Origin: a virus
Taxonomy: Duplodnaviria > Heunggongvirae > Uroviricota > Caudoviricetes
Length of the DNA stretch: 16,163 nt
Virus record (IMG/VR): IMGVR_UViG_2744054628_000001
Strand: one strand, 5' to 3'
The notes under the pieces are model-generated. The model was not told the DNA's origin. It made no database searches and saw only the letters and a program-made list of their open reading frames with translations. Every line of letters starts with the position of its first letter. The stretch's first letter is position 1. This document shows, in pieces, positions 45 to 16,163 of the stretch. Position numbers and translations under genes: made by a program.

Positions 45-329
45 ATGAAATCCATGGATAAGTTAACAACGGGTGTCGCCTATGGCACCTCAGCAGGTAG
101 TGCCGGGTACTGGTTTTTACAGTTGCTCGATAAAGTCACGCCCTCACAGTGGGCGGCAATAGGTGTGCTGGGTAGTCTGGTACCGGATATTCTGGAACGT
201 GACTGCGGCCTGCAGCCTGCCGCTGTGAGCCGTGTTCAGTCCATTATTGATGATCTGCGCGATCAGATAGCCCTGCGGGTGACCGAAGCAGGTGCGGATG
301 ATGAGGAGGAATTACAGCAGGAGGAGTAA
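45..329 (+). CDS. Chimeric ORF: pinholin (phage 21 S / EssD-like) N-terminus with dual-start motif MKSMDK, TMD1 and half of TMD2 (to about nt 182), fused in frame to an acidic C-terminal tail resembling a small-terminase (Nu1-like) C-terminus
   Basis: Residues 1-46 ([26 protein letters not shown]...[11 protein letters not shown]) match the S21 pinholin signature from memory; the second TM helix is then replaced by PDILERD...[27 protein letters not shown]. Stop TAA 327-329 overlaps the terminase ATG 329-331. SD GAGGTGGGG lies upstream of ATG 45. Confidence 0.55.
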
Positions 330-2431: not shown

Positions 2432-2640
2432 ACCAGAATGATATCGAAGCCATGATTCAGCGTTATACGGAAGCTGAAATGGCGGTGCTGGACGGAAAAT
2501 CCGTCACCTTTAATGGTCAGCAGATGACAATGGAAAACTTATCTGAGATCCGGCAGGGACGGCAGGAGTGGGAGCGCCGCCTTGCGGCTCTGATTACACG
2601 ACGACGGGGGCATCCCGGGTACCGGCTGGCGAGGTTCTGA
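2428..2640 (+). CDS. W: Head-tail joining / head completion protein (gpW-like)
   Basis: About 70 aa ORF between terminase and portal, the position of lambda W; RRRG motif near the C-terminus as in gpW. GGAGG at 2417-2421 favours ATG 2428 over ATG 2422. Stop TGA 2638-2640 overlaps the portal ATG. Confidence 0.65.
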   Translation: MNQNDIEAMIQRYTEAEMAVLDGKSVTFNGQQMTMENLSEIRQGRQEWERRLAALITRRRGHPGYRLARF

Positions 2641-4109
2641 TGGCAATTCTTGATGATGTGATTGGCGTTTTTTCACCAGGATGGAAAGCGGCAAGGCTGC
2701 GTTCCCGTGCGGTGATCCAGGCTTATGAGGCCGTAAAAACGACGCGGACACACAAAGCCCGGCGGGAAAACCGAACTGCCGACCAGTTAAGCCAGTACGG
2801 GGCCGTGTCGTTACGTGAGCAGGCCCGTTACCTTGATAACAACCACGATCTGGTTATTGGTGTATTTGACAAGCTGGAAGAACGGGTGGTGGGGAAAAAC
2901 GGGATTATTGTCGAGCCACATCCGGTATTACGCAATGGGGCCATTGCCCGTGACCTGGCTGCGGAGATTCGCACCCGATGGAGTGAATGGTCTGTCAGCC
3001 CGGAAGTCACCGGGCAGTTTACCCGTCCGATGCTGGAACGTCTGATGCTGCGTACCTGGCTGCGCGATGGTGAGGTGTTTGCCCAGATGGTTTCCGGGCG
3101 CATAAACAGCCTGACGCCTTCTGCCGGTGTTCATTTCTGGCTGGAGGCGCTCGAGCCGGACTTTATTCCCATGACCAGTGATGAGAGCAACAGGCTGAAT
3201 CAGGGCGTGTTTGTTGATGACTGGGGGCGTCCCGAAAAATATCTGGTGTATAAAAGCCGTCCCGTATCCGGACGGCAGATGGAAACCAAAGAAGTGGATG
3301 CAGAGCGAATGCTGCATCTTAAATTTGTTCGCCGTCTGCACCAGATGCGCGGGACGTCTTTATTGTCCGGTGTGCTGATCCGCCTCAGTGCTCTGAAAGA
3401 GTATGAAGATTCTGAGCTGACTGCAGCAAGGATCGCCGCTGCTCTGGGGATGTACATCCGGAAAGGCGACGGGCAGAGCTATGAACCGGATGGTAATGGC
3501 AGCAAGGATAAGGAACGCGAGCTTACCATTCAGCCAGGCATTATTTACGATGATCTGAAACCCGGCGAAGAAATCGGAATGGTGAAGTCGGATCGCCCCA
3601 ATCCTAACCTTGAAACTTTTCGTAATGGTCAGTTGCGTGCCGTGGCGGCGGGCAGTCGTCTGAGTTTTTCCAGTACAGCGCGCAACTATAACGGCACTTA
3701 CAGTGCCCAGCGTCAGGAGCTGGTTGAATCCACTGATGGCTACCTGATCCTGCAGGACTGGTTTATTGGTGCCGTCACCCGTCCGATGTATCGTGCCTGG
3801 CTGAAACAGGCTGTGGCATCCGGTGTTATCAGGCTACCCCGCGATCTTGACCGTTCTTCACTGTATACCGCGGTGTATTCCGGACCGGTGATGCCGTGGA
3901 TTGACCCTGTTAAGGAGGCTGAGGCCTGGAAAATCCAGATTCGTGGTGGAGCGGCGACAGAATCAGACTGGGTACGTGCTGGTGGTCGTAATCCGGATGA
4001 TGTCAAACGTCGGCGCAAGGCCGAAATTGATGAAAACCGCAAACTGGATCTGGTATTTGATACCGATCCGGCCAGTGATAAAGGAGGCAGCAGTGCCGCA
4101 ACGAAATGA
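2640..4109 (+). CDS. Portal protein
   Basis: 489 aa ORF directly after terminase and W, start ATG 2640 overlapping the W stop (TGATG). Size and position are typical of a portal; I cannot align it to lambda gpB from memory, so the family assignment is by synteny. Confidence 0.85.
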   Translation: MAILDDVIGVFSPGWKAARLRSRAVIQAYEAVKTTRTHKARRENRTADQLSQYGAVSLREQARYLDNNHDLVIGVFDKLEERVVGKNGIIVEPHPVLRNGAIARDLAAEIRTRWSEWSVSPEVTGQFTRPMLERLMLRTWLRDGEVFAQMVSGRINSLTPSAGVHFWLEALEPDFIPMTSDESNRLNQGVFVDDWGRPEKYLVYKSRPVSGRQMETKEVDAERMLHLKFVRRLHQMRGTSLLSGVLIRLSALKEYEDSELTAARIAAALGMYIRKGDGQSYEPDGNGSKDKERELTIQPGIIYDDLKPGEEIGMVKSDRPNPNLETFRNGQLRAVAAGSRLSFSSTARNYNGTYSAQRQELVESTDGYLILQDWFIGAVTRPMYRAWLKQAVASGVIRLPRDLDRSSLYTAVYSGPVMPWIDPVKEAEAWKIQIRGGAATESDWVRAGGRNPDDVKRRRKAEIDENRKLDLVFDTDPASDKGGSSAATK

Positions 4110-6120
4110 CAGGAGCCGCAGCACACCGACGACCAGTCCGAAGAATAATTCCTGGTTCAGGATGCAGGCTGGTCACCAGAGTGACGCGGATATTTATATT
4201 TATGACGAGATTGGTTTCTGGGGTGTTACAGCGAAGCAGTTTATCAGTGATCTGAATGCACTGGGCGATATCACCCACATTAATCTCCATATTAATTCAC
4301 CGGGTGGCGATGTCTTTGAAGGCATCGCCATTTTTAATGCGCTGAAAACACATGGTGCGTCCATTACCGTTTATGTCGACGGTGTGGCGGCGTCAATGGC
4401 GTCGGTCATTGCGATGGTGGGAACCCCGGTCATTATGCCGGAAAACACCTTCATGATGATTCATAAACCATTTGGCTTTACGGGCGGTGATGCGGAGGAC
4501 ATGCGCACCTATGCCGACCTGCTCGATAAAGTTGAGGCGGTTCTGTTACCCGCTTATGCACAGAAAACCGGGAAAACCACCGATGAAATTGCTGCCATGC
4601 TGGCGGATGAGACCTGGATGTCCGGTGCCGAATGTCTGGCACATGGATTTGCTGATCAGGTAACGCCAGCCGTTAAGGCAATGGCATGTATTCAGTCAAA
4701 ACGTACAGAGGAATTTAAAAAGATGCCGGAATCCATTCGAAACATGATTACTCCGCCACGCAACAGTGCTCCACGCGTACAGGATGATGAACCTGCAGCC
4801 TCCCGGACGCCAGTGCAGGCAGCAGCACCCGTGGTGGATGAAAACAGTATCCGTGCGCAGGTACTGGCAGAGCAAAAAGCGCGTGTAAACGGTATTAATG
4901 ATCTGTTTGCCATGTTTGGCGGGCGTTATCAGACGCTGCAGGCCCAGTGTCTTGCCGATCCTGAATGTTCGCTGGAGCAGGCCCGCGAAAAGTTGTTGAA
5001 CGAGATGGGGCGCGAGTCCACGCCATCCAATAAAAATACCCCGGCTCATATTTATGCCGGTAACGGTAATTTTGTGGGGGACGGGATCCGCCAGGCGCTG
5101 ATGGCGCGTGCCGGATTTGAAAAAACCGAACGTGATAATGTCTACAACGGGATGACCCTGCGTGAATATGCCCGTATGTCACTGACTGAACGGGGTATTG
5201 GGGTTTCCGGTTATAACCCGATGCAGATGGTCGGTGCGGCGTTCACACACAGTACGTCTGACTTCGGTAATATTCTGCTGGATGTTGCGAACAAAGCCAT
5301 TCTGCAGGGCTGGGAAGATGCCCCTGAAACCTATGAACAGTGGACGCGGAAAGGTCAGTTGTCTGATTTTAAAATTGCCCATCGTGTGGGTATGGGGGGC
5401 TTCAGTGCTCTGCGTCAGGTGCGTGAAGGGGCGGAATATAAATACGTCACCACCGGAGATAAACAGGCCACTATTGCACTGGCGACCTATGGCGAGCTGT
5501 TCAGTATCACCCGTCAGGCCATTATCAATGATGATCTGAATATGCTGACCGATGTCCCGATGAAGCTGGGCCGTGCGGCGAAATCCACTATTGCCGATCT
5601 GGTTTATGCCATTCTGACGTCTAACCCGAAAATCTCCACAGATAATGTAAGTCTGTTCGATAAAGCGAAACATGCAAACGTACTGGAGAGCGCTGCAATG
5701 GACGTGGCATCGCTGGATAAAGCCCGCCAGTTGATGCGCGTTCAGAAAGAGGGGGAGCGTCATCTGAATATTCGTCCTGCGTTCGTACTGGTACCGACGG
5801 CGATGGAGTCTGTTGCTAACCAGGTCATTCGCTCCTCAAGTGTCAAGGGGGCTGACATTAACGCCGGTATTATTAACCCGGTGAAAGATTTTGCGACCGT
5901 TATTGCAGAGCCTCGTCTTGATGATAACAGCCAGACCACCTTCTACCTGGCTGCGTCAAAAGGCTCCGATACGATTGAAGTGGCTTATCTCAACGGTGTG
6001 GATACGCCATATATTGATCAGATGGAGGGCTTCAGTGTGGATGGCGTGACAACGAAAGTGCGTATTGACGCCGGTGTCGCGCCAGTTGATCACCGCGGTC
6101 TGGTGAAATGTACGGCGTAA
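4093..6120 (+). CDS. Prohead protease (ClpP/S14-like) - linker/scaffold - major capsid protein fusion
   Basis: N-terminal ClpP-like domain with candidate catalytic Ser (GVAASMASV) and His (MMIHKPFG); long C-terminal domain in the major capsid position. Start GTG 4093 chosen for the AAGGAGG SD at 4081-4087 (5 nt spacer); alternative ATG at 4162. The in-frame ORF upstream to 3901 overlaps the portal and is rejected. Confidence 0.8.
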   Translation: MPQRNDRSRSTPTTSPKNNSWFRMQAGHQSDADIYIYDEIGFWGVTAKQFISDLNALGDITHINLHINSPGGDVFEGIAIFNALKTHGASITVYVDGVAASMASVIAMVGTPVIMPENTFMMIHKPFGFTGGDAEDMRTYADLLDKVEAVLLPAYAQKTGKTTDEIAAMLADETWMSGAECLAHGFADQVTPAVKAMACIQSKRTEEFKKMPESIRNMITPPRNSAPRVQDDEPAASRTPVQAAAPVVDENSIRAQVLAEQKARVNGINDLFAMFGGRYQTLQAQCLADPECSLEQAREKLLNEMGRESTPSNKNTPAHIYAGNGNFVGDGIRQALMARAGFEKTERDNVYNGMTLREYARMSLTERGIGVSGYNPMQMVGAAFTHSTSDFGNILLDVANKAILQGWEDAPETYEQWTRKGQLSDFKIAHRVGMGGFSALRQVREGAEYKYVTTGDKQATIALATYGELFSITRQAIINDDLNMLTDVPMKLGRAAKSTIADLVYAILTSNPKISTDNVSLFDKAKHANVLESAAMDVASLDKARQLMRVQKEGERHLNIRPAFVLVPTAMESVANQVIRSSSVKGADINAGIINPVKDFATVIAEPRLDDNSQTTFYLAASKGSDTIEVAYLNGVDTPYIDQMEGFSVDGVTTKVRIDAGVAPVDHRGLVKCTA

Positions 6121-6143
6121 ACGTCGCAGACAACAACTCTGAT

Positions 6144-6163
6144 GGCCCGTAAGGGCTTTTTTT
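6144..6163 (+). terminator. Intrinsic terminator-like hairpin after the capsid gene
   Basis: GGCCC-GTAA-GGGC stem-loop (6144-6156) followed by T7 (6157-6163), 24 nt after the capsid stop TAA 6118-6120. Confidence 0.55.
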
Positions 6164-6206
6164 GTACCTGAAATCAGCCCCTGAACGGGGCTGTGCGGAG
6201 ACAGTT

Positions 6207-6530
6207 ATGGCAAAGAATTTTGTAGAAGAAGGAAAAACGGTGGCGATTGTTGCCAGTGCAGCCATCAGCAGCGGAGATCTGGTGCAGGTGGGTGATGTTT
6301 TTGCGGTGGCGCTGACCGATATTCCACAGGGTGAAACAGGCGACGGCATGACCGAAGGTGTGTTTATGCTGTCTAAGCTGAAAACGGATGACATGAAAAC
6401 GGGTAAGAAGGTTTATCTGAAGTCCGGAAAAGTTCAGCTGACTAACAGCGGCTCTGATCCGCTGGTCGGGGTTGTCTGGGCAGATGCCGGAACCAGTGCA
6501 GAAGAAGTGCCGGTAAAACTCAATGTCTGA
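6207..6530 (+). CDS. DUF2190-family phage head protein (possible decoration/cement protein)
   Basis: 107 aa; begins MAKNFVEEGKTV..., which I recognise as the DUF2190 family pattern; GGAG at 6197-6200 with a 6 nt spacer to ATG 6207. The track ORF start at 6162 lacks an SD. Confidence 0.6.
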   Translation: MAKNFVEEGKTVAIVASAAISSGDLVQVGDVFAVALTDIPQGETGDGMTEGVFMLSKLKTDDMKTGKKVYLKSGKVQLTNSGSDPLVGVVWADAGTSAEEVPVKLNV

Positions 6531-6693
6531 TCCCTTTTCCCGGCTGGCAGCGCGTATGGATGCGATCACGGTCAGAAAGATGGGAAAGACAGCCTCGATT
6601 AATGATGCCGATATGACTGTGATCCCGGGAGAAACACTGGCAGAGCTGAATGCTCTGTCCGGACCTGCGGTCTCTCTGGTGGTGTTTTCTTCG
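6523..6693 (+). pseudogene. FII: Head-tail attachment protein gpFII-like, N-terminal fragment (about 57 codons) ending at the inversion breakpoint
   Basis: ATG 6523 overlaps the DUF2190 stop (ATGTCTGA). MSDPFSRLAARMDAI...GPAVSLVVFS resembles the lambda FII N-terminus (MADFDNLFDAAIARAD...SPSLFV). Past about nt 6690 the frame reads antisense through the inverted H fragment. Confidence 0.5.
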
Positions 6694-6900
6694 GGATGCG
6701 GCTGTTGCAGCCGAAGAAGCCGCCTGCATTGTCTGCCGGGCGGCCTGAGTCTGACGCTCCATAAAACGCTGCATACGGGCAGAAGACCGTTCTGCATCGC
6801 TGGCTGCACCATTCAGAAGGTTTTTGATACGGGGAATTTCATTTTTAAACTCTGCCGCATCAATCCCCAAATCAATGACCAGGTTGGCTATCTGGTCCAT
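6694..6900 (-). pseudogene. H: Tail tape measure protein gpH-like, N-terminal fragment (about 69 codons), inverted relative to the rest of H
   Basis: Minus-strand ATG at 6900 with SD GGAGGTG and a 6 nt spacer; MDQIANLVIDLGIDAAEFKNE...SDAERSS... resembles the lambda H N-terminus (..GDLVVDLSLDAARFDEQ...SDAKK..). It lies directly downstream of the T-frame stop, as H does in lambda. Confidence 0.6.
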
Positions 6901-7222
6901 AACGCACACCTCCGGAAATACCTTCCCCAAGATGCATCAGTTCTTCGTCCGTTCGCTCCGGTATCCCGTTCTCTTCCGGTAAAAGGCTGAAATCAGCCAC
7001 CGCAGCATCACTGCTGCCGGACACCATTCTCACGATCAATGCCTTCAGCGAGGCAAACTGCGCATCCATCCACACATCACTGAAGCTCTGCATCCGGAAA
7101 TAATCGCCCCATTCACCAAGCTCAGTGGCCGACATTTCCGACAGCATCCGCCGCCAGTCTGCCCGCCGGAACTCCCGGGCAAGCCGCATGACAAACTGCA
7201 TTTCCCGTGTCAGGACTTTTCC
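6872..7222 (-). CDS. T: gpT-like -1 frame extension of the tail assembly chaperone (made as a G-T fusion by programmed frameshift); no independent start expected
   Basis: Open -1 frame relative to G, running from the end of G to the stop at 6872-6874; position between G and H as in lambda. Confidence 0.7.
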   Translation of the reverse strand, partial: GKVLTREMQFVMRLAREFRRADWRRMLSEMSATELGEWGDYFRMQSFSDVWMDAQFASLKALIVRMVSGSSDAAVADFSLLPEENGIPERTDEELMHLGEGISGGVRYGPDSQPGH

Positions 7223-7596
7223 GGCGTCAGCACCTCATGCTCCAAATCCCCGGCATTCTCAATGGCTCCCATACCGCTCAGCGACAGAACCATCTCCGCC
7301 CCCGCTCCCAGGGCATCATACGACCATGTTGTAATAACGGATGCGCAAAGCGTCTCAACATCCTGAGACTGTTCCGCATTCCACAGTGAGCGGGAAACCA
7401 GCCAGGCATTGATATCCATCCCCATCCGCAGAAAAGCAATCTGTCGTTCAGCCTCCGGCAGTTCTCCCTCTTCGGCATCAAACTTTGCCGTTCGCTGCTG
7501 AACAAACGCCAGATATTCAATTCTCTGCAGCCCGGACAGCTCACTGAGCACCACGGACTGCTTTTCATAATTAAACGAGCCCTGTTTCAGAAACAT
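7210..7596 (-). CDS. G: Tail assembly chaperone gpG
   Basis: MFLKQGSFNYEKQSVVLSELSGLQRIEYLA resembles lambda G (MFLKTESFEH..TLSELSALQRIEHLA); SD GGTGGAG upstream with a 6 nt spacer (alternative ATG 7599). Confidence 0.85.
   Translation of the reverse strand: MFLKQGSFNYEKQSVVLSELSGLQRIEYLAFVQQRTAKFDAEEGELPEAERQIAFLRMGMDINAWLVSRSLWNAEQSQDVETLCASVITTWSYDALGAGAEMVLSLSGMGAIENAGDLEHEVLTPEKS
7216..7222 (-). promoter_or_regulatory. Candidate -1 programmed ribosomal frameshift site (G GAA AAG on the minus strand) for G-T fusion synthesis
   Basis: Heptamer GGAAAAG in the 0 frame of G, 4 codons before the G stop and inside the short overlap where the T frame is open; analogous to the lambda G-T site G GGA AAG. 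Confidence 0.45.
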
Positions 7597-7612
7597 CATG
7601 TTCTCCACCTGC

Positions 7613-7636
7613 AAAAAAGCCCCGGATAACCGGGGC
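7613..7636 (-). terminator. Intrinsic terminator on the minus strand between V and G
   Basis: On the minus strand: GCCCCGG-TTAT-CCGGGGC, a perfect 7 bp GC stem, followed by T6, between the V stop (7657-7659) and the G start. Confidence 0.7.
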
Positions 7637-7656
7637 AAATGATGAGTATCGTCCTG

Positions 7657-8400
7657 TTAACCTGCGGCGCTGACAGCCACCGCAGCCACGGCCACAAAAT
7701 CGCCGTCAGAAGTCATGCCCACAATGCTGACACTGCCCTGCTTCACGCCTTTCACCGTGGCCACAAGCCCGTTCAGGGTCACCGTGGCAGTCTGTGGATC
7801 TGTCGAATGCACACTGATCGCTTTGTCACTGGCTCCGTCAGGTTTTACTGTAAAGGTCAGCGTGGTGGTTGCTCCCACTTTTACACTGGCAGATGCCGGT
7901 GCCACCGTCAGCCCGGTAACGCTCACTGTTTCAGTGCCTTCCTCTGCCAGATACGGACGCCCCACACCGCTGATTTTCACTGTGCGGGTCATCACGTCTT
8001 TTGAGGCAATGGTTTTACCCAGTGAGCTCAGCCAGCCACGGAAAACATCAACAGTGCCGTTGGGATATTTGATACGAAACGCGCAGACTTCACCGGAGTC
8101 GAACAACTGAACCAGTTTTTTCTGCCCGCTGTCACCCGGACGCCAGGCCAGCGTCGCCGAAGTATCACCGACGGATTTCTGCCCCTGGGTTGTCGTTTTC
8201 CAGTCTGCATCTTCATCATCGAGATAAGTGTCATCTTCTGCATCAGCGGTCATTTCGCCAGGTTGCAGATCCTTCACCATCGCAAGACGCAGCCAGTCAG
8301 TGTCCGATAAAGGGTTCGCAAACGCATCGCCCTTGCCGGTGTACATCCAGAACGTCGTTCCCGCACCTTTCGTTTTTGCCAGTGGATTTGGTGTGGTCAT
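7657..8400 (-). CDS. V: Major tail protein gpV with C-terminal Ig-like (Big_2-type) domain
   Basis: MTTPNPLAKTKGAGTTFWMY...YLDDEDADW...NGTVDVFRGW resembles lambda V ([20 protein letters not shown]...YLDDEDADW...NGTVDVFRGW). AGGAGG SD 5 nt upstream of ATG 8400; the track start at 8406 is a GTG abutting the SD. Confidence 0.92.
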   Translation of the reverse strand: MTTPNPLAKTKGAGTTFWMYTGKGDAFANPLSDTDWLRLAMVKDLQPGEMTADAEDDTYLDDEDADWKTTTQGQKSVGDTSATLAWRPGDSGQKKLVQLFDSGEVCAFRIKYPNGTVDVFRGWLSSLGKTIASKDVMTRTVKISGVGRPYLAEEGTETVSVTGLTVAPASASVKVGATTTLTFTVKPDGASDKAISVHSTDPQTATVTLNGLVATVKGVKQGSVSIVGMTSDGDFVAVAAVAVSAAG

Positions 8401-8411
8401 TGCCACCTCCT

Positions 8412-8813
8412 TTAATTCGTGTACGTGATCTGGTACGTGATTTCCGCCATCGCCCAGGTGGCCATCTCATTATCACGTTGATAGTTAAAACCGAGAGGGA
8501 TCAGGGTGTCGATGAGTCCGGAAAGTGCCGGTATATCATTCAGAGCCGGGAAAATGGTGCTCTCCATCCACATATCCAGCTCTGAATCCGGTGCCTGTGC
8601 CCGGATGAAGACAGCAATATGCAGAACAGCCTGCCAGTCATCTTCATCCGTCATTTTTCCGGTGTACTGAGCATCACTCAGCCACACCGCCACGGCAGGC
8701 AGTTCCTGCGCATCAATAAATGCCGGAAGCCCGTCAAAAAACGTGGCGCTGTCTCCACACTGTTCCCGAAGGCGTGCCAGTACGGCCTGGCGGATTTGTG
8801 TATGTCGGTTCAT
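8412..8813 (-). CDS. U: Tail terminator protein gpU
   Basis: ...ATFFDGLPAFIDAQELPAVAVWLSDAQYTG...PDSELDMWMES...IPALS resembles lambda U (..ATFFDGRPAVFDEADFPAVAVYLTGAEYTG..PDSELDAWMES..IPALS). Start taken as the ATG overlapping the Z stop (ATGA); alternative ATG at 8825. Confidence 0.85.
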   Translation of the reverse strand: MNRHTQIRQAVLARLREQCGDSATFFDGLPAFIDAQELPAVAVWLSDAQYTGKMTDEDDWQAVLHIAVFIRAQAPDSELDMWMESTIFPALNDIPALSGLIDTLIPLGFNYQRDNEMATWAMAEITYQITYTN

Positions 8814-9388
8814 CGGGTCAGCCATAACCTCAGTTGTTGTTTCAGTGCATACCCCAGCTGTTTCGGCATTTCCGCAGCAATAATACGGTCGCGGGCATCT
8901 TCAAATGCCTGTGTCAGCGGTCCGGACAGCGGGACTTTCACCACATCAATGGGGTAACGATTTTTGCCATCAATACGCCGCATCACATGCCAGCGACCAT
9001 TCGCCAGTTGCTGAATAAACGCATCCCGGAAAAGATATTTACCCACCTTCAGCACACTGCCACGGTACTGCAGTTTTCCACCACGCCGGGCCAGTCTGAC
9101 CCGGGCTGTCCCCAGCTTAATAGCGGGCAGATTGCCCCGGTTAACGCGGATCCTGGCCGTCATTTTTCCTGACGGACTGGCTTTAAACATCCGGACACGC
9201 TGACGTACCAGTTTCAGGGGGATCCCTTTCACCTGGTTATCTCCCGCAACGGTATTCCCGGCAACCTGCCGGGTGGCGACCGAGACCGCTTTCTGTGCCA
9301 CACGGTTTATCGCCCATGCGCTGGCCTGTGGCACCATACGGGTATCAAGGCTGTTCAGATTACGGATGGCATTCTCAAGCCCCTTCAT
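8810..9388 (-). CDS. Z: Minor tail protein gpZ
   Basis: 192 aa; ...NGRWHVMRRIDGKNRYPIDVVKVP...LGYALKQQLR resembles lambda Z (..NGRWHVMQRVAGKNRYPIDVVKIP..LGYALQHQLR); SD AAGAGGTG upstream of ATG 9388. Confidence 0.9.
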   Translation of the reverse strand: MKGLENAIRNLNSLDTRMVPQASAWAINRVAQKAVSVATRQVAGNTVAGDNQVKGIPLKLVRQRVRMFKASPSGKMTARIRVNRGNLPAIKLGTARVRLARRGGKLQYRGSVLKVGKYLFRDAFIQQLANGRWHVMRRIDGKNRYPIDVVKVPLSGPLTQAFEDARDRIIAAEMPKQLGYALKQQLRLWLTR

Positions 9389-9399
9389 CCCACACCTCT

Positions 9400-9513
9400 T
9401 TACTCAATAAAGATCATTGGCTTACCGTTAAAACGTTCATGCCGTGTGACCGTCCATTGTTGTCCGTCATAAACAACGCGATCCCCGCGCCGTGGGCGGT
9501 ATCCGTCCATGCG
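9400..9513 (-). pseudogene. FII: gpFII-like C-terminal fragment (about 37 codons plus stop), immediately upstream of Z on the minus strand
   Basis: Minus-strand frame reads ...RMDGYRPRRGDRVVYDGQQWTVTRHERFNGKPMIFIE-stop, resembling the lambda FII C-terminal region (..RQLRRGDTLTIGEENFWVDRV..). Its stop TAA (9400-9402) overlaps the Z SD, the native FII-Z arrangement. No start codon or N-terminus on this strand. Confidence 0.5.
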
Positions 9514-12363
9514 CAGACGGTGGAGAAGAGCGCACAGGCTCATGAACGCATGGCCCGCGAGGTGGAGCAAACCCGCCAGCGTATGGAGGCACTGAGCCAG
9601 AAAATGCGCGAGGAACAGGCGCAGGCCATGGCTCTGGCGGAGGCTCAGGATAAAGCGGCTGCCGCGTTTTATCGTCAGATTGACAGTGTGAAACAGGCCA
9701 GTGCGGGACTGCAGGAATTACAGCGTATTCAGCAGCAGATCCGACAGGCCAGAAACAGTGGCGGGATTGGTCAGCAGGATTATCTGGCGCTGATTTCTGA
9801 GGTTACGGCGAAAACCGGTGTTCTTACGCAGGCTGAGGCAGAGGCTACCCGACAGAAAGTGGCGTTTATCCGTCAGCTTAAAGAGCAGGCAACCCGCCAG
9901 AATCTTTCTTCTTCTGAGTTGCTTCGTGCTAAGGCTGCCCAGCTGGGGGTAAGCAGTGCTGCAGAAGTGTATATCCGCAAAATGGAGCAGGCAGGAAAAG
10001 CCACGCATTCGCTGGGTCTGAAAAGTGCAGCGGCCCGCCAGGAGATAGGCGTTCTGATAGGTGAACTGGCCCGCGGCAATTTAGGTGCGCTGAGGGGATC
10101 CGGGATAACGCTGGCTAACCGTGCCGGATGGATAGACACACTGATGTCACCGAAAGGCATGATGCTGGGCGGGGTTATTGGCGGTATTGCCGCGGCCGTC
10201 TATGGTCTGGGTAAAGCCTGGTATGATGGTCAGAAGGAGGGGGAAGAATTTAACCGCCAGTTGTCGCTGACGGGGCATTATGCCGGAGTCACTGCCGGGC
10301 AGCTGTGGACGCTCAGTCGTGCTATTTCCGGGAATGGTATTACGCAACATGCTGCAGCCGGTGCGCTGGCTCAGGTGGTGGGGAGTGGTGCATTTCGTGG
10401 AAACGATATCGGTATGGTGGCGAGAGCTGCCGCACAGATGGAGCGATCGGTTGGCCAGTCGGTCAGCGATACCATAAATCAGTTTAAGCGGCTGAAGGAT
10501 GATCCTGTAAATGCCGCGAAGGCTCTGGACAATGAGCTGCATTTTCTTACTGCCACTCAGCTTGAGCAGATACGCGTCCTTGGGGAACAGGGGCGGTCCA
10601 GTGATGCGGCACGGATAGCCATGTCTGCACTGGCAGAGGAAACCGGTCGGCGTACTGCGGATATTGATAATAACCTCAATGCGCTGGGCAGTACGCTGAA
10701 GTATCTGTCTGATTTATGGAGTCGTTTCTGGGATGCGGCCATGAATATTGGTCGTGAAGACTCGCTGGATGAACAGATTTCCGCTTTACAGGAGAAAGTG
10801 TCGCGGGCGAAAAGACTCCCCTGGACGGCATCATCTTCTCAGGTTGAATACGATCAGCAGCGTCTTAACGAGCTTCAGGAGAAAAAACGCCAGAAGGATT
10901 TGCAGGATGCAAAAGAGCAGGCAGAGCGGAATTATCAGGAGCAACAGAAACGCCGTAATGCTGAAAATGCTGCACTGAACCGGATGAATGAAACGGAAGC
11001 AGCACGACATCAGCGTGAAATTGCGCGTATTAATTCCATGCAGTACGCCGATCAGGCTGTCAGGGATGCGGCGATACAACGTGAAAATGAACGTTACGAG
11101 AAAGCCCTGGCATCCGGTAAGAAAAAAACACGCGAACCCCGTAATGATGAGGCCACCCGGTTATTGCTGCAGTACAGTCAGCAACAGGCACAGGTGGAAG
11201 GACAGATTGCTGCTGCCAGACAGTCAGCAGGCATTGCCACGGAAAGGATGACAGAAGCGCATAAACAGCTTCTGGCTCTGCAGCAGCGCATCAGCGACCT
11301 GGACGGGAAAAAACTGACGGCAGATGAAAAGAGTGTGCTGGCCCGTAAAGATGAACTGATTCAGGCACTGACGCTGCTGGATGTAAAACAGCAGGAGCTT
11401 CAGAAACAGACGGCACTCAACGAGCTGAAGAAAAAAACAATTCAGCTGACCAGTCAACTGGCTGAAGAAGAGCGCGCTCAGCGTCAGCAACATGACCTGG
11501 ATATCGCCACGGTGGGTATGGGTGATCAGCAGCGGCAGCGATATCAGGTACAACTGAGTCTTCGCCAGAAATACCAGCAACAGCTGGAGCAGTTGAGGCG
11601 GGATAGTGAGCAGAAAGGAACATATAACACGGATGACTACAGAAAGGCCGAGCAGGCGCTGACGGAGAGCCTGAACCGACAACTGAATGAGAATCGCCGT
11701 TACTGGCAACAGCTTGAAGTTGTGCAGGGTAACTGGAAAAACGGAGTCCTGCGTGCATTTCAGGATTTTACCGTGGATGCAGATAATACGGCAGGAACAG
11801 CAGAACAGGTGTTCTCGTCAGCCTTCAGCAACATGGGAAATGGCCTGGCAACTTTTGTCACTACCGGCAAACTCAATTTCAAATCCTTCACCTCTTCTGT
11901 GCTGTCAGATATGGCGAAAATCCTGGCGCAGGCAACCATGATGAAATCGATAAAAGGGATTGGCAGTGTACTGGGATTTGATCTCAGCAGCCTTTCCCTG
12001 AATGCCAATGGGGGGATTTATCAGTCTGCTGATTTGAGTCGTTACAGTGGCACGGTGGTTAACCGTCCGACGTTTTTTGCTTTTGCAAAAGGCGCGGGTG
12101 TGATGGGGGAAGCGGGACCTGAAGCCATTCTGCCACTGCGTCGTGGTGCTGACGGTAAGCTGGGGGTTGTGGCGGATATTGGTGGTTCAGGTATGGCGAT
12201 GTTTGCCCCGCAGTACAACATCGAGATCAATAACGATGGCACGAACGGGCAGATAGGTCCGGCTGCCCTGAAGGTGGTTTATGACCTCGGGAAAAAAGCG
12301 GCAGCGGACTTTATGCAACAGCAGGCCCGTGATGGTGGTCGGTTAAGTGGAGCATATCGGTAA
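9514..12363 (+). pseudogene. H: Tail tape measure protein gpH-like, body and C-terminus (about 950 codons), separated from its N-terminus by the inversion
   Basis: Coiled-coil-rich ORF with a C-terminus resembling lambda H (...VINNDGTNGQIGPAALK.VYD......RDGG). The first 73 codons of the six-frame ORF (from 9295) are antisense to Z and FII and carry no SD. Stop TAA overlaps the M start (TAATG). Confidence 0.75.
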
Positions 12364-12692
12364 TGGAGACGTTTCACTGGAAAGTGCGCCCGGATATGAA
12401 TGTGGTATCAGAGCCGAAAGTGGTGACAGTGAAGCTGGGCGATGGTTATGAACAGCGTCGTGCGGCGGGACTGAATAACCAGTTGTCGACTTACAGCGTG
12501 ACGATACGTGTTCGTAAATGTGAACACCCATCTTTAAAAGCCTTTCTGGAACGGCACGGTGGCGTCCGCGCATTTCAGTGGACGCCACCTTATGACTGGA
12601 AGCCGATCAGGGTGGTTTGTCGTAAATGGTCGGCAAGCGTGGGGGCGCTGTGGATAACCATAACGGCAGATTTTGAACAGGTCGTGGCATAG
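12363..12692 (+). CDS. M: Minor tail protein gpM
   Basis: 109 aa, the same length as lambda M and similar along its whole length (METFHWKVRPDMNVVS... vs lambda MKTFRWKVKPGMDVAS...). Confidence 0.95.
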   Translation: METFHWKVRPDMNVVSEPKVVTVKLGDGYEQRRAAGLNNQLSTYSVTIRVRKCEHPSLKAFLERHGGVRAFQWTPPYDWKPIRVVCRKWSASVGALWITITADFEQVVA

Positions 12693-12701
12693 GAGGCTCT
12701 G

Positions 12702-13400
12702 ATGCAGGATATTCCACAGGAAACACATCATGAGACGACATGCCTCACTCAGTCAGCCCAAGTGGTGCTCTGGGAAATCGATCTGACAGAGGTCGGTGGT
12801 GAACGTTATTTTTTCTGTAATGAGCAGAACGAAAAAGGTGAGCCGGTTACCTGGCAGGGGCGGCAGTATCAGGCATACCCCATTCAGGGGACGGGATTTG
12901 AACTGAATGGCAAGGGCAGTGCTGCCCGTCCGACACTGACGGTTTCTAACCTGCACGGCATGGTCACCGGGATGGCGGAAGACCTGCAGAGTCTGGTCGG
13001 CGGAACGGTGGTCCGGCGTAAGGTTTACGCCCGTTTTCTGGATGCGGTGAACTTCGTCAACGGAAACAGTGACGCCGATCCGGAGCAGGAGGTGATCAGC
13101 CGCTGGCGCATCGAGCAGTGCAGCGAACTGAGCGCGGTGAGTGCCTCTTTTGTACTGTCCACGCCGACGGAAACGGACGGTGCCGTTTTTCCGGGACGTA
13201 TCATGCTGGCCAACACCTGCACCTGGACCTATCGCGGTGACGAGTGCGGTTATCACGGTCCGGCGGTCGCGGATGAATATGATCAGCCGACGTCCGATAT
13301 CACGAAGGATAAATGCAGCAAATGCCTGAGCGGCTGTAAGTTTCGCAATAACGTCGGCAACTTTGGCGGCTTCCTTTCCATTAACAAACTTTCGCAGTGA
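12702..13400 (+). CDS. L: Minor tail protein gpL
   Basis: 232 aa, very close to lambda L as I remember it (MQDI.QET...VVLWEIDLTEVGGERYFFCNEQNEKGEPVTWQGRQYQ...); AGGAGG SD 5 nt upstream of the ATG. Confidence 0.95.
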   Translation: MQDIPQETHHETTCLTQSAQVVLWEIDLTEVGGERYFFCNEQNEKGEPVTWQGRQYQAYPIQGTGFELNGKGSAARPTLTVSNLHGMVTGMAEDLQSLVGGTVVRRKVYARFLDAVNFVNGNSDADPEQEVISRWRIEQCSELSAVSASFVLSTPTETDGAVFPGRIMLANTCTWTYRGDECGYHGPAVADEYDQPTSDITKDKCSKCLSGCKFRNNVGNFGGFLSINKLSQ

Positions 13401-13405
13401 ATCCC

Positions 13406-14149
13406 ATGACAGAGACAGAATCAGCGATTCTGGCGCACGCCCGGCGATGTGCGCCAGCGGAGTCGTGCGGCTTCGTGGTGAGAACACCGGAGGGAGAAAG
13501 ATATTTTCCCTGCGTGAATATATCTGGTGAGCCGGAGGCGTATTTCCGGATGTCGCCGGAGGACTGGCTGAGTGCAGAAATGCAGGGAGAGATTGTGGCG
13601 CTGGTCCACAGCCACCCCGGTGGTCTGCCCTGGCTGAGTGAGGCCGACCGGCGGCTGCAGGTGCAGAGTGATTTGCCGTGGTGGCTGGTCTGCCGGGGGG
13701 CGATTCATAAATTCCGCTGTGTGCCGCATCTCACCGGGCGGCGCTTTGAGCACGGGGTGACGGACTGTTACACGCTGTTCCGGGACGCTTACCATCTGGC
13801 GGGAATTGAGATGCCGGATTTTCATCGCGGGGATGACTGGTGGCGTCACGGCCAGAATCTCTATCTTGACAATATGGAGGCAACGGGTTTTTACCGTGTC
13901 CCACTGACAGAGGCGCAGCCTGGCGACGTGCTGCTGTGCTGTTTTGGTTCATCGGTGCCGAATCATGCCGCCATTTACTGTGGCGACGGCGAGCTGCTGC
14001 ACCATATTCCTGAACAACTGAGTAAACGAGAGAGGTACACCGACAAATGGCAGCGACGCACACACTCCCTCTGGCGTCACCGGGCATGGCACGCATCTGC
14101 CTTTACGGGGATTTGCAACGATTTGGTCGCCGTATCGACCTTCGTGTGA
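13406..14149 (+). CDS. K: Tail assembly protein gpK (JAMM/MPN plus NlpC/P60 two-domain protein)
   Basis: Starts MTETESAILAHARR...; JAMM motif HSHPGGLPWLSEAD (H-x-H-x7-S-x2-D); NlpC/P60-like Cys (VTDCYTLF) and His (PNHAAIYCG). Track start GTG 13397 is an alternative. Confidence 0.93.
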   Translation: MTETESAILAHARRCAPAESCGFVVRTPEGERYFPCVNISGEPEAYFRMSPEDWLSAEMQGEIVALVHSHPGGLPWLSEADRRLQVQSDLPWWLVCRGAIHKFRCVPHLTGRRFEHGVTDCYTLFRDAYHLAGIEMPDFHRGDDWWRHGQNLYLDNMEATGFYRVPLTEAQPGDVLLCCFGSSVPNHAAIYCGDGELLHHIPEQLSKRERYTDKWQRRTHSLWRHRAWHASAFTGICNDLVAVSTFV

Positions 14150-14694
14150 AAACGGGGGCTGAAGCCATCCGGGCACTGGCCACACAGCTCCCGGTGTTTC
14201 GTCAGAAACTGAATGAGGGCTGGTATCAGGTGCGCATTGCCGGGCGTGATGCAGGCGAAAATGAATTATCTGCCCGTCTTAATGAGCCGCTGGCAAATGG
14301 TGCCGTGATCCACATCGTGCCGCGTCTGGCGGGAGCTAAAAGTGGCGGTGTGTTTCAGGTGGTGCTTGGGGCGGCGCTGATTGCGGTGGCATGGTGGAAC
14401 CCTGTGGGCTGGCTGGGGGCCGCGGCTGTATCGGGCATGTATGCGGCAGGGGCCAGTATGATCCTGGGCGGAGTGGCGCAGATGCTGGCACCGAAAGCCA
14501 GGACGCCCACGGCAGCCAGTACAGATAACGGCAAACAGAACACCTATTTCTCCTCACTGGATAACATGGTTGCCCAGGGCAATGTTCTGCCTGTTCTGTA
14601 CGGTGAAATGCGTGTGGGGTCGCGGGTGGTTTCTCAGGAGATCAGCACGGCAGACGAAGGGGACGGTGGTCAGGTTGTGGTGATTGGTCGCTGA
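14047..14694 (+). CDS. I: Tail assembly protein gpI
   Basis: MAATHTLPLASPGMARICLYGDLQRFGRR... and the C-terminus ...NVLPVLYGEMRVGSRVVSQEISTADEGDGGQVVVIGR match lambda I as I remember it; the 5' end overlaps K in another frame. Confidence 0.9.
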   Translation: MAATHTLPLASPGMARICLYGDLQRFGRRIDLRVKTGAEAIRALATQLPVFRQKLNEGWYQVRIAGRDAGENELSARLNEPLANGAVIHIVPRLAGAKSGGVFQVVLGAALIAVAWWNPVGWLGAAAVSGMYAAGASMILGGVAQMLAPKARTPTAASTDNGKQNTYFSSLDNMVAQGNVLPVLYGEMRVGSRVVSQEISTADEGDGGQVVVIGR

Positions 14695-14712
14695 TGCAAA
14701 ATGTTTTATGTG

Positions 14713-14740
14713 AAACCGCCTCCGGGCGGTTTTGTCGTTT
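14713..14740 (+). terminator. Stem-loop with U-rich tail between I and J (possible attenuator or terminator)
   Basis: AAACCGCC-TCCG-GGCGGTTT, a perfect 8 bp stem (14713-14732), followed by TGTCGTTT; lies between the I stop (14692-14694) and the J start (14755). Confidence 0.4.
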
Positions 14741-14754
14741 ATGGAGCATGACGA

Positions 14755-16163
14755 ATGGGTAAAGGCAGCAGTAAGGGGCATACCCCGCGCGAAGCGAAGG
14801 ATAACCTGAAATCCACGCAGCTGCTGAGTGTGATCGATGCCATCAGCGAAGGGCCGATTGAAGGTCCGGTGGATGGATTAAAAAGCGTGCTGCTGAACAG
14901 TACACCGGTGCTGGACAGTGAGGGGAATACCAACATCTCCGGTGTCACGGTGGTGTTCCGGGCAGGTGAGCAAGAGCAGACACCGCCGGAGGGATTTGAA
15001 TCCTCCGGTTCCGAGACGGTGCTGGGTACGGAAGTGAAATACGACACGCCGATCACCCGGACCATCACGTCTGCAAACATCGACCGTCTGCGCTTTACCT
15101 TCGGTGTGCAGGCACTGGTGGAAACCACCTCAAAGGGGGACCGGAATCCGTCGGAAGTCCGCCTGCTGGTTCAGATCCAGCGTAATGGTGGCTGGGTGAC
15201 GGAAAAAGACATCACCATTAAGGGCAAAACCACCTCGCAGTATCTGGCCTCGGTGGTGGTGGGTAACCTGCCGCCGCGCCCGTTCAATATACGGATGCGC
15301 AGGATGACGCCGGACAGCACCACAGACCAGCTGCAGAACAAAACGCTCTGGTCGTCATACACCGAAATCATCGATGTGAAACAGTGCTACCCGAACACGG
15401 CACTGGTCGGCGTGCAGGTGGATTCGGAGCAGTTCGGCAGCCAGCAGGTGAGCCGTAATTATCATCTGCGCGGGCGCATTCTGCAGGTGCCGTCGAACTA
15501 TAACCCGCAGACGCGGCAATACAGCGGTATCTGGGACGGAACGTTTAAGCCAGCATACAGCAACAACATGGCCTGGTGTCTGTGGGATATGCTGACCCAT
15601 CCGCGCTACGGCATGGGGAAACGTCTTGGTGCGGCGGATGTGGACAAATGGGCGCTGTATGTCATCGGCCAGCATTGCGATCAGTCGGTGCCGGACGGTT
15701 TTGGCGGCACGGAGCCGCGCATCACCTGTAATGCGTACCTGACCACACAGCGCAAGGCGTGGGATGTGCTCAGTGATTTCTGCTCTGCGATGCGCTGTAT
15801 GCCGGTATGGAACGGGCAGACGCTGACGTTCGTGCAGGACCGACCGTCGGATAAGGTGTGGACCTATAACCGCAGTAATGTGGTGATGCCGGATGATGGT
15901 GCGCCGTTCCGCTACAGCTTCAGTGCCCTGAAGGACCGCCATAATGCCGTTGAGGTGAACTGGATTGACCCGAATAACGGCTGGGAGACGGCGACAGAGC
16001 TTGTGGAGGACACGCAGGCCATTGCCCGTTACGGTCGTAACGTCACGAAGATGGATGCTTTTGGCTGTACCAGCCGGGGGCAGGCACACCGCACCGGGCT
16101 GTGGCTGATTAAAACAGAACTGCTGGAAACGCAGACCGTGGACTTCAGCGTGGGTGCCGAAGG
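14755..16163 (+). CDS. J: Tail tip / host specificity protein gpJ, N-terminal about 469 codons (runs off the window end)
   Basis: Open frame from ATG 14755 to the window end (absent from the ORF track because it has no stop). Translation MGKGSSKGHTPREAKDNLKSTQLLSVIDAISEGPIEGPVDGLKSV... matches lambda J as I remember it; GGAG 8 nt upstream. Confidence 0.93.
   Translation, partial: MGKGSSKGHTPREAKDNLKSTQLLSVIDAISEGPIEGPVDGLKSVLLNSTPVLDSEGNTNISGVTVVFRAGEQEQTPPEGFESSGSETVLGTEVKYDTPITRTITSANIDRLRFTFGVQALVETTSKGDRNPSEVRLLVQIQRNGGWVTEKDITIKGKTTSQYLASVVVGNLPPRPFNIRMRRMTPDSTTDQLQNKTLWSSYTEIIDVKQCYPNTALVGVQVDSEQFGSQQVSRNYHLRGRILQVPSNYNPQTRQYSGIWDGTFKPAYSNNMAWCLWDMLTHPRYGMGKRLGAADVDKWALYVIGQHCDQSVPDGFGGTEPRITCNAYLTTQRKAWDVLSDFCSAMRCMPVWNGQTLTFVQDRPSDKVWTYNRSNVVMPDDGAPFRYSFSALKDRHNAVEVNWIDPNNGWETATELVEDTQAIARYGRNVTKMDAFGCTSRGQAHRTGLWLIKTELLETQTVDFSVGAE

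Follow-up and report, generated by a model that had tools for sequence, protein, structure and literature searches.

A Balanced 2.8-kb Inversion and a 2.2-kb Deletion in a Lambda-Like Prophage Contig of Escherichia coli 3c112

Organization of the Locus

The window, meaning the whole stretch of 16,163 nucleotides that was analysed, is the entire contig LSBS01000332.1 of the draft E. coli assembly GCA_001641955.1 from strain 3c112, which is entered in a literature table as ST10 from human faeces in Hanoi. The assembly is fragmented into at least 332 contigs, and the inversion described below is known from this one 16-kb contig only. A lambda-type tail module is encoded (Minor_tail_Z, Phage_tail_U, major tail protein, TAC protein G, Phage_tail_T, and a Tape_meas_lam_C tape measure, all Pfam matches lying above their gathering scores), in which minus-strand Z-U-V-G-T sit between the plus-strand head genes and plus-strand H-M-L-K-I-J (Table 1). 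The gene calls thus agree with the strand layout given by an earlier, sequence-only reading of this DNA. The frame of T is -1 relative to G, and T is reached from G by a -1 frameshift. GC skew is negative in the inverted segment and positive in both flanks, changing sign across about 6,500-9,500. A scan of positions 6100-9900 gave promoter and terminator counts equal to shuffle expectation, with no sign of a new promoter driving the inverted genes.

Table 1. Features at the rearranged locus (positions in the window).
Feature	Position	Strand	Description	Match
holin::terS fusion ORF, OAF26113.1	45..329	+	94 aa; scar of 2,199-bp deletion, junction 181/182	
DUF2190/Phage_cement_2 head decoration gene	6207..6530	+	intact; last undisturbed gene before inversion	
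FII-like 5' fragment	6523..6696	+	57-58 native codons	identical to codons 1-58 of WP_001283144.1
Inverted segment	6694..9504		2,811 bp with microhomology, 2,803 bp without	100% identical to reverse complement of collinear parent
Junction A	6694..6697		GGAT	aligns to parental left flank and to inverted block
H 5' fragment	6694..6900	-	codons 1-69; overlaps end of T, as in parent	
Tail assembly protein T	6872..7201	-	intact, inverted	PF06223, E=3.9e-15
Tail assembly chaperone G	7210..7596	-	intact, inverted	PF06894, E=3.1e-39
Terminator-like hairpin of V	7636-7619	-		
Major tail tube protein V, with Big_2 domain	7657..8400	-	intact, inverted	
Tail terminator U	8412..8813	-	intact, inverted	PF06141, E=8.7e-61
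Tail completion protein Z	8810..9388	-	intact, inverted	PF06763, E=7.1e-76
FII-like 3' fragment	9400..9504	-	last 34 codons and stop; directly upstream of Z, as in parent	
Junction B	9501..9504		ATCC	reverse complement of junction A GGAT
H body	9505..12363	+	codons 70-1021 (952 codons) and stop; no start codon of its own	

Two Changes Relative to a Collinear Parent

Two structural changes aside, the window matches the collinear thrW prophage of E. coli YZMc17-1 at 100.000% identity, with zero substitutions across 16 kb. BLAST aligned it to that prophage in four segments, the third of them reversed and with 4-bp overlaps at both inversion junctions; strain H8 gave the same segment pattern, including the reversed block. 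The first change is a balanced inversion of 6694-9504 (2,811 bp by BLAST against collinear relatives), and the second is an in-frame 2,199-bp deletion at junction 181/182. One inversion and one deletion suffice to rebuild the window base for base from the collinear genome, which is far more than chance, and the contig contains none of the wild-type junction 32-mers. The sequence-only reading had proposed an inversion of about 2.8 kb with breakpoints at 6685-6700 and 9500-9530, and both exact exchange points fall inside these ranges.

No base was gained, lost, or duplicated at the inversion junctions. An ambiguity of 4 bp or more is expected in just 1.8% of random inversions (P=0.018), so the observed overlap fits the use of microhomology. 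A repeat search (seed 7) found no inverted or direct repeats beyond 4 bp at the junctions, and local alignment of the ±60-nt breakpoint contexts, compared with 2,000 random pairs, revealed no hidden homology beyond the null distribution; the previous claim that no extended inverted repeat is present is therefore upheld, with a 4-bp inverted microhomology added to it. Secondary structure is unremarkable at the left parental breakpoint (z=-0.4), and a 6-bp-stem hairpin, a weak signal (z=-2.1), lies 1 nt from the right one. By eye, the breakpoints bear no convincing resemblance to an invertase pseudo-site or to the gyrase consensus.

The deletion, which the sequence-only reading had overlooked, is apparent by BLAST against both H8 and YZMc17-1. 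Lost with it are the holin C-terminus, endolysin, Rz, and 115 codons of terS, and presumably cos as well. In the resulting fusion ORF, residues 5-47 match the PF04971 holin domain and residues 44-80 the C-terminus of DUF1441; among about 15 billion proteins its product stands as a singleton, and no complete E. coli genome spans the deletion junction. Only a 2-bp TA microhomology is present here, expected by chance with P=0.16. The essD-rrrD-Rz lysis cassette occurs in 5,226 of 5,426 E. coli genomes, at a median of three places; a repeat-induced misjoin through this cassette was considered and rejected because the deletion junction shares just 2 bp.

The Two Split Genes

The first gene interrupted by the inversion is an FII-like head-tail joining gene located between the head decoration gene and Z. 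Its N-terminal fragment (residues 1-58) matches PF13856 (E=3.6e-6) and phrog_153 (E=6.6e-25), and its frame reads on into H and T sequence in antisense until a stop at 6990, yielding a 155-aa chimeric ORF. Reverse-complementing 6694-9504 in silico restores a 91-aa ORF identical to WP_001283144.1 of strain H8, which matches the Gifsy-2 family PF13856 over residues 1-88 with 64.2 bits (cut-off 24.1), PDB entry 2PP6 over residues 1-91 (E=1e-19), and phrog_153 (E=1.4e-46). Against the lambda FII family PF05354 (Phage_attach) the restored protein reached 19.5 bits (E=0.0015), below the cut-off of 26, and a PDB sequence match to gpFII (1K0H) was not obtained. By these profile scores the split gene is thus assigned to the Gifsy-2 head-tail family PF13856, with PF05354 reached below threshold only; the PF13856/2PP6 fold is probably that of gpFII.

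The second is the tape measure gene H, in which the exchange point is the ATCC inside codon 69/70. Its N-terminal fragment matches positions 1-69 of phrog_11020, 24823, 18453, and 5918, and also the phrog_24 tape measure, while the body carries TMP_2, TMP_4, and Tape_meas_lam_C and covers phrog_24 positions 97-1056. The GenBank product annotated on the body, OAF26115.1, comprises 911 aa from an internal ATG at 9628 and is found on this contig only. The same in silico re-inversion rejoins H in frame as a 1,021-aa protein identical to WP_044064114.1 of H8.

The sequence-only reading had held that a single inversion splits both genes and that re-inversion would rejoin them in frame, and the exact restoration of both bears this out, as do the expected FII-like and tape-measure family matches of all four fragments. 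Its details stand to different degrees. The FII-like ORF does begin at 6523, and the loss of homology noted near 6690 corresponds to a native part ending at 6693/6696; the C-terminus does lie on the minus strand, ending at 9400 upstream of Z, but starts at 9504 rather than 9513, and the restored protein has 91 residues instead of about 95. The identification as FII is right as to head-tail joining homology (PF13856, phrog_153), but not as to Phage_attach. For H, the minus-strand N-terminus from 6900 to about 6694 was read correctly, as was the length of the restored protein (about 1,020 aa claimed); the location and strand of the body were also correct, but it starts at 9505 and not at about 9514.

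Comparison with Related Phages and Prophages

The collinear order is present in 2,684 complete E. coli genomes and in 17 close phage records, the inverted layout in none of them. The related phages mEp460, cdtI, and Ayreon are all collinear. The inversion junctions were found in 0 of 5,426 complete E. coli genomes and in 0 of 50,697 phage records; the 30-mers of junctions A and B occur in IMG/VR in no record other than the source contig, and the junction A 30-mer is absent from JGI metagenomes and GTDB representative genomes. By exact-protein look-ups the chimeric ORF products are singletons, on record from NCBI only. The arrangement is therefore private to one contig of a draft assembly. The possibility, raised in the sequence-only reading, that intact relatives natively carry Z-U-V-G-T on the opposite strand does not hold, since these phages and prophages are collinear with intact FII-like and H genes.

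The mEp460/cdtI/Ayreon group and the thrW prophages of YZMc17-1 and H8 share with the window terL, portal, the ClpP-protease/capsid fusion, DUF2190 cement, the FII-like gene, Z-U-V-G-T, and H-M-L-K-I-J, with 97.7-100% identity across the 2.8-kb block; for YZMc17-1 the identity is 100% throughout the window. All are collinear with intact FII-like, H, lysis, and terS genes, whereas the window has 6694-9504 reversed and 2,199 bp deleted. A tail order in one collinear orientation holds in every relative examined and fails in the window, where Z-U-V-G-T and H codons 1-69 are reversed.

Origin of the Rearrangements

The most probable explanation, to which we give a probability of about 0.8, is recent and private illegitimate recombination mediated by microhomology in an already dead lambda-like (mEp460/cdtI-type) prophage carrying two private structural mutations. 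This is an ordinary, isolated case of a decaying prophage or, with lower probability, a product of misassembly, and no new system or mechanism. The inversion would have arisen by a reciprocal, base-perfect exchange between GGAT in the FII-like gene and ATCC in H, probably independent of extended homology and not made by a dedicated invertase, and candidate routes may include microhomology-guided breakage and rejoining, topoisomerase-type reciprocal exchange, or replication template switching. The features of microhomology recombination are present at both lesions, namely 4 bp at the inversion, 2 bp at the deletion, and clean junctions with no long repeat, mobile element, or filler. The published model of short-homology illegitimate recombination, alternative end-joining, and MMBIR (PMC2621351) shares with the window the 2-4 bp microhomology, the absence of mobile element or filler, and non-recurrent endpoints. 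Resection-based routes such as alternative end-joining normally lose bases, in contrast to this fully reciprocal and perfectly conservative inversion, with no base lost or gained, which would be an atypical outcome for them. Two private rearrangements combined with zero substitutions in 16 kb form an unusual coincidence, behind which an artefact or a common cause could stand.

The first of these, in which the DNA of 3c112 is collinear and the inversion, perhaps with the deletion, was made by chimeric reads, scaffolding, or contig merging, is considered unlikely. In its favour, the window is a single whole draft-assembly contig, neither rearrangement was found outside it in any collection searched, two structural differences stand beside not a single substitution relative to YZMc17-1, and many sequences of this region recur across E. 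coli prophages, the lysis cassette being the widespread example. Misassembly is nevertheless argued against by the exact base-for-base balance and the absence of a repeat at the junctions. For a graph or overlap misjoin to arise, the joined ends must share a repeat no shorter than the k-mer length, whereas the overlaps are just 4 bp and 2 bp and the 120 nt around the joins show no excess similarity. Chimeric paths between paralogous prophages cannot yield an inverted segment, since the sequence these elements have in common runs in one relative orientation; moreover, two independent chimeric joins would have to coincide to yield an inversion that is reciprocal and base-exact at both ends, and the contig lacks the wild-type junctions. 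We infer that the rearrangement lies in the DNA of strain 3c112 and not in its assembly.

A common cause, that is, one complex event producing deletion and inversion together, is likewise improbable. Such an event might involve abortive induction with in situ replication and terminase or topoisomerase breaks (possibly induced by a gyrase poison), followed by microhomology-guided repair and selection of the survivor through loss of the lysis cassette. Within one prophage, 6.5 kb separates two lesions of comparable length (2.2 and 2.8 kb), both joined at microhomology (2 and 4 bp) in the same manner, free of IS and filler and unaccompanied by substitutions; the deletion takes the lysis genes and the region upstream of terS, where cos is expected, and the hairpin adjoins the right parental breakpoint. 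Type II topoisomerases produce a 4-bp stagger, which the 4-bp junction overlap would fit. Yet no sequence feature ties the lesions together in time, and the hairpin is a weak signal. At known E. coli clock rates, 16 kb could stay free of substitutions through decades of separate history, so two independent events are not implausible. The specific form of this scenario, in which both lesions are a single survival scar of an induced or topoisomerase-poisoned prophage that suffered several breaks, rejoined at 2-4 bp, and spared the cell by losing its lysis cassette, is a little more doubtful still. If true, the contig would document from nature an illegitimate recombination that is complex, conservative, and type II topoisomerase-like, in the prophage of a multidrug-resistant isolate, clinical or commensal.

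A reversible inverton- or shufflon-like switch turning tail production off and on has a negligible probability: the exact conservativeness of the exchange is all that favours it, whereas the boundary inverted repeats do not exceed 4 bp (GGAT/ATCC) in contexts that align no better than random pairs, the contig's gene calls include no recombinase gene or domain, no orientation other than the collinear one is seen in the complete genomes and close phage records, the junction k-mers are missing from three collections (IMG/VR and, for junction A, also JGI metagenomes and GTDB), and the inverted state destroys two ORFs while swapping in no alternative ones. Lacking inverted repeats, recombinase gene, and second orientation, it is effectively refuted. 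Invertible segments are known in phage tail-fibre regions, as in Mu G, P1 C, and e14 P. Like Mu G/Gin, P1 C/Cin, and e14 P/Pin, the window has a reversed segment with exact boundaries in phage tail genes; unlike them, it has no inverted-repeat crossover sites, adjacent invertase, or alternative ORFs, and its inverted orientation, seen once only, is lethal for tail assembly.

Functional Consequences

Lambda gpFII is a hexameric stopper joining head to tail, and gpH sets tail length and initiates tail polymerisation (PMC10721106). As the sequence-only reading had anticipated, neither gene is intact in the window: the FII-like protein is cut short at residue 58 of 91, and H consists of a 69-codon stub and a start-less body of 952 codons. 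Z-U-V-G-T are antisense to late transcription in the inverted state. Taken together, these lesions would make a functional tail or head-tail joining impossible from this element alone. With inversion and 2,199-bp deletion combined, we infer from the gene structures that the prophage is no longer viable and persists as a decaying remnant. The tail lesion offers no obvious selective benefit and would have been fixed by drift or hitch-hiking.

Multiple defects are commonplace in lambdoid prophages, with frameshifts, deletions, and IS insertions among those listed (PMC2669165). The window resembles such defective or cryptic prophages (e.g., the Sp elements of O157 Sakai) in carrying several inactivating lesions in morphogenesis and lysis genes, whereas its internal, balanced, repeat-less inversion is a less usual lesion than those reported there. 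As in these elements, modules that remain intact (head, tail tip) could still serve as donors in recombination or be complemented. The prophage is near-complete by gene content, yet non-functional through a rearrangement that gene-content-based predictors would miss, and its decay is seen while the sequence has not diverged at all from that of an intact relative. For catalogues of spontaneous structural mutations in natural E. coli it offers a clean example of a reciprocal, repeat-independent inversion at 4-bp microhomology; if it were a misassembly, its worth would be only as a caution on draft contigs. Of the 17 late genes, 15 are undamaged and match their counterparts in intact relatives at 100% identity.

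Architecture of the rearranged element

A six-frame ORF map of the window places packaging and head genes on the plus strand up to about position 6,530, tail genes on the minus strand from 6,872 to 9,388, and plus-strand genes again from about 9,500. GC skew is negative over about 6,500-9,500 and positive in the left and right flanks, and together with the Pfam assignments listed below this confirms the strand layout given by the sequence-only reading.

Features assigned in the window
Feature	Position (nt)	Strand	Basis or remark
Holin::terS fusion ORF	45-329		P21-type holin N-terminus in frame with C-terminus of DUF1441 small terminase
Prohead protease (ClpP-like) and major capsid protein	4162-6120		Single fusion gene, intact; relatives annotated likewise
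FII-like gene, two parts	6523-6696 and 9400-9504		Split by the inversion
H, N-terminal fragment	6900-6694	minus	69 residues
Phage_tail_T	6872-7201	minus	Pfam
TAC protein G	7210-7596	minus	Pfam
Major tail protein with Big_2	7657-8400	minus	Pfam
Phage_tail_U	8412-8813	minus	Pfam
Minor_tail_Z	8810-9388	minus	Pfam
H body (long ORF)		plus	Pfam TMP_2, TMP_4, Tape_meas_lam_C

Positions 6000-10200 served as a megablast query in a search of 5,426 complete E. coli genomes and 50,697 phage records. It recovered 6694-9504 as one block in thousands of records at up to 100% identity, always oriented opposite to its flanks relative to the window, and not one of the genomes or records searched matched at least 80% of the query in one place. 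The collinear order, seen in the prophage of E. coli H8 and in phage mEp460, is terS, terL, a small head-tail protein, portal, the protease/capsid fusion, DUF2190, a 91-aa gene, Z, U, V, G, T, H (1,021 aa), M, L, K, I and J. Direct BLAST against H8 and against the thrW prophage of E. coli YZMc17-1 divides the window into four segments (1-182, 181-6697, 6694-9504 reversed and 9501-16163), all four of which match YZMc17-1 at 100.000% identity. Starting from a collinear genome, a single inversion of 2,811 bp and a single deletion of 2,199 bp rebuild the window base for base. The inversion junctions overlap by GGAT (6694-6697) and ATCC (9501-9504), a 4-bp inverted microhomology, with no base gained or lost; no inverted repeat was found beyond these 4 bp, as had been noted earlier. 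In gene J (15673-16158), all 24 differences from H8 fall within the last 500 bp with a spacing in multiples of three, as a diverged J allele or a mosaic boundary would be expected to give, and there are no differences from YZMc17-1.

The split genes and a second lesion

When 6694-9504 is reverse-complemented, two ORFs appear, one of 91 aa that starts at 6523 and one of 1,021 aa; they are identical to H8 proteins WP_001283144.1 and WP_044064114.1, respectively, which bears out the proposal that one inversion splits both the FII-like head-tail joining gene and the tape measure gene H. The 58-residue N-terminal FII-like fragment retains matches to PF13856 and phrog_153, while the short H fragment aligns with positions 1-69 of several tape-measure-linked PHROGs and the 952-residue H body picks up the same PHROGs from position 70. 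The designation 'FII-like' is right by position and probable fold; formally, the gene belongs to PF13856. It is homologous over its full length to the Gifsy-2 prophage protein 2PP6 (E=1e-19), and its match to the lambda FII Pfam family (19.5 bits) stays below the 26-bit threshold. In databases this gene (11707-11982 in the collinear relative's locus, L001) is called a 'DNA breaking-rejoining protein' by PGAP and an 'ATP-binding sugar transporter from pro-phage' under PF13856/2PP6. Neither name seems to suit a head-tail joining protein, which is what the gene's place between the cement protein gene and Z, along with that sub-threshold match to the lambda FII family, points to.

The earlier interpretation is therefore supported, and it is refined by a second lesion that it did not contain. 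Relative to H8 and YZMc17-1, 2,199 bp are absent at 181/182, with a 2-bp microhomology, and no complete E. coli genome spans this junction. It was this deletion that produced the holin::terS fusion ORF at 45-329. Lost are the holin C-terminus, rrrD (endolysin), Rz, a small ORF, 115 codons of terS and the intergenic region upstream of terS, where cos would be expected.

Provenance and authenticity

By exact-protein match, the window is the whole of contig LSBS01000332.1 in assembly GCA_001641955.1, from E. coli 3c112, an ST10 strain from human faeces in Hanoi (PMC8698711 supplement). In a set of about 15 billion proteins the holin::terS fusion occurs only once, as does the truncated 911-aa call for H, and exact-protein look-up returned no record of the 155-aa FII chimera. 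The 30-mers across junction A (6694-6697) and junction B (9501-9504) are both absent from IMG/VR, the former also from JGI metagenomes and GTDB representative genomes. The inverted arrangement is private to one contig. The contig breaks off 44 nt upstream of the holin gene at one end and within J at the other, in both cases in E. coli prophage repeats, the usual cause of such breaks; the lysis cassette occurs in 5,226 of the 5,426 complete genomes, at a median of three places.

The inversion is considered a genuine mutation with a probability of roughly 0.8, judged from the sequence of its junctions. That one draft contig should hold two private rearrangements and zero substitutions is a troubling coincidence that would suit an assembly artefact, but it is softened by E. 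coli clock rates, at which 16 kb without change is compatible with decades of divergence. Moreover, a graph or overlap misjoin requires a shared repeat at the join, where only 4 and 2 bp are present, and the ±60 nt junction contexts are no more alike than random pairs. Chimeric paths joining paralogous prophages keep orientation and cannot invert a segment. The inversion is also reciprocal and exact at its left and right ends, and an artefact appears improbable. A programmed invertible segment was rejected, as there were no boundary inverted repeats in the ±60 nt comparison, no alternative ORFs, no recombinase gene within the contig and no second case of the inverted state in the E. coli genomes and phage records searched.

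Origin of the inversion

Of random inversions in the window sequence, only 1.8% would be expected to have a boundary ambiguity of at least 4 bp. The inversion would fit microhomology-guided illegitimate recombination, the junction type being the same as in short-homology cases described previously (e.g. PMC2621351). Because all bases are conserved, a reciprocal exchange would fit better than resection-based end joining; it could have been topoisomerase-like or, alternatively, have involved template switching twice at the same pair of 4-mers. At the parental right breakpoint, 1 nt separates the 4-bp crossover from a hairpin with a perfect 6-bp stem (CGGCTG-CAA-CAGCCG), at 6698-6715 of the window in its inverted state and about 11785-11807 in the reverse complement of L001. 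This hairpin may bear on template switching or breakage, and the 58-nt context shows a weak DNA-folding signal (z=-2.1).

Functional consequences and related elements

In lambda, gpFII is the hexameric stopper joining head to tail, and gpH determines tail length and starts tail polymerisation (PMC10721106). Here the FII-like gene and H are broken, Z-U-V-G-T run antisense to late transcription, and a promoter scan detected no signals above expectation that could drive the inverted genes; this element alone would therefore be incapable of making tails or joining heads to them. The 2,199-bp deletion is predicted to abolish lysis and packaging as well.

Among known elements, the nearest are mEp460/cdtI-type phages, which are collinear and intact unlike the rearranged window, and the multiply defective lambdoid prophages of O157 Sakai (PMC2669165). 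The window is a further instance of prophage decay by rearrangement, a known kind of process, and the event left a lesion that is private to this draft contig and non-recurrent. The intact YZMc17-1 thrW prophage (locus L004) is bordered by an Avs2 anti-phage gene just past its tail-fibre genes and contains, on the opposite strand, an 'ATP-dependent nuclease' gene located between Q and the DNA methyltransferase gene; the two features, noted at 1-701 and 28119-29570 of L004, may both be defence cargo.
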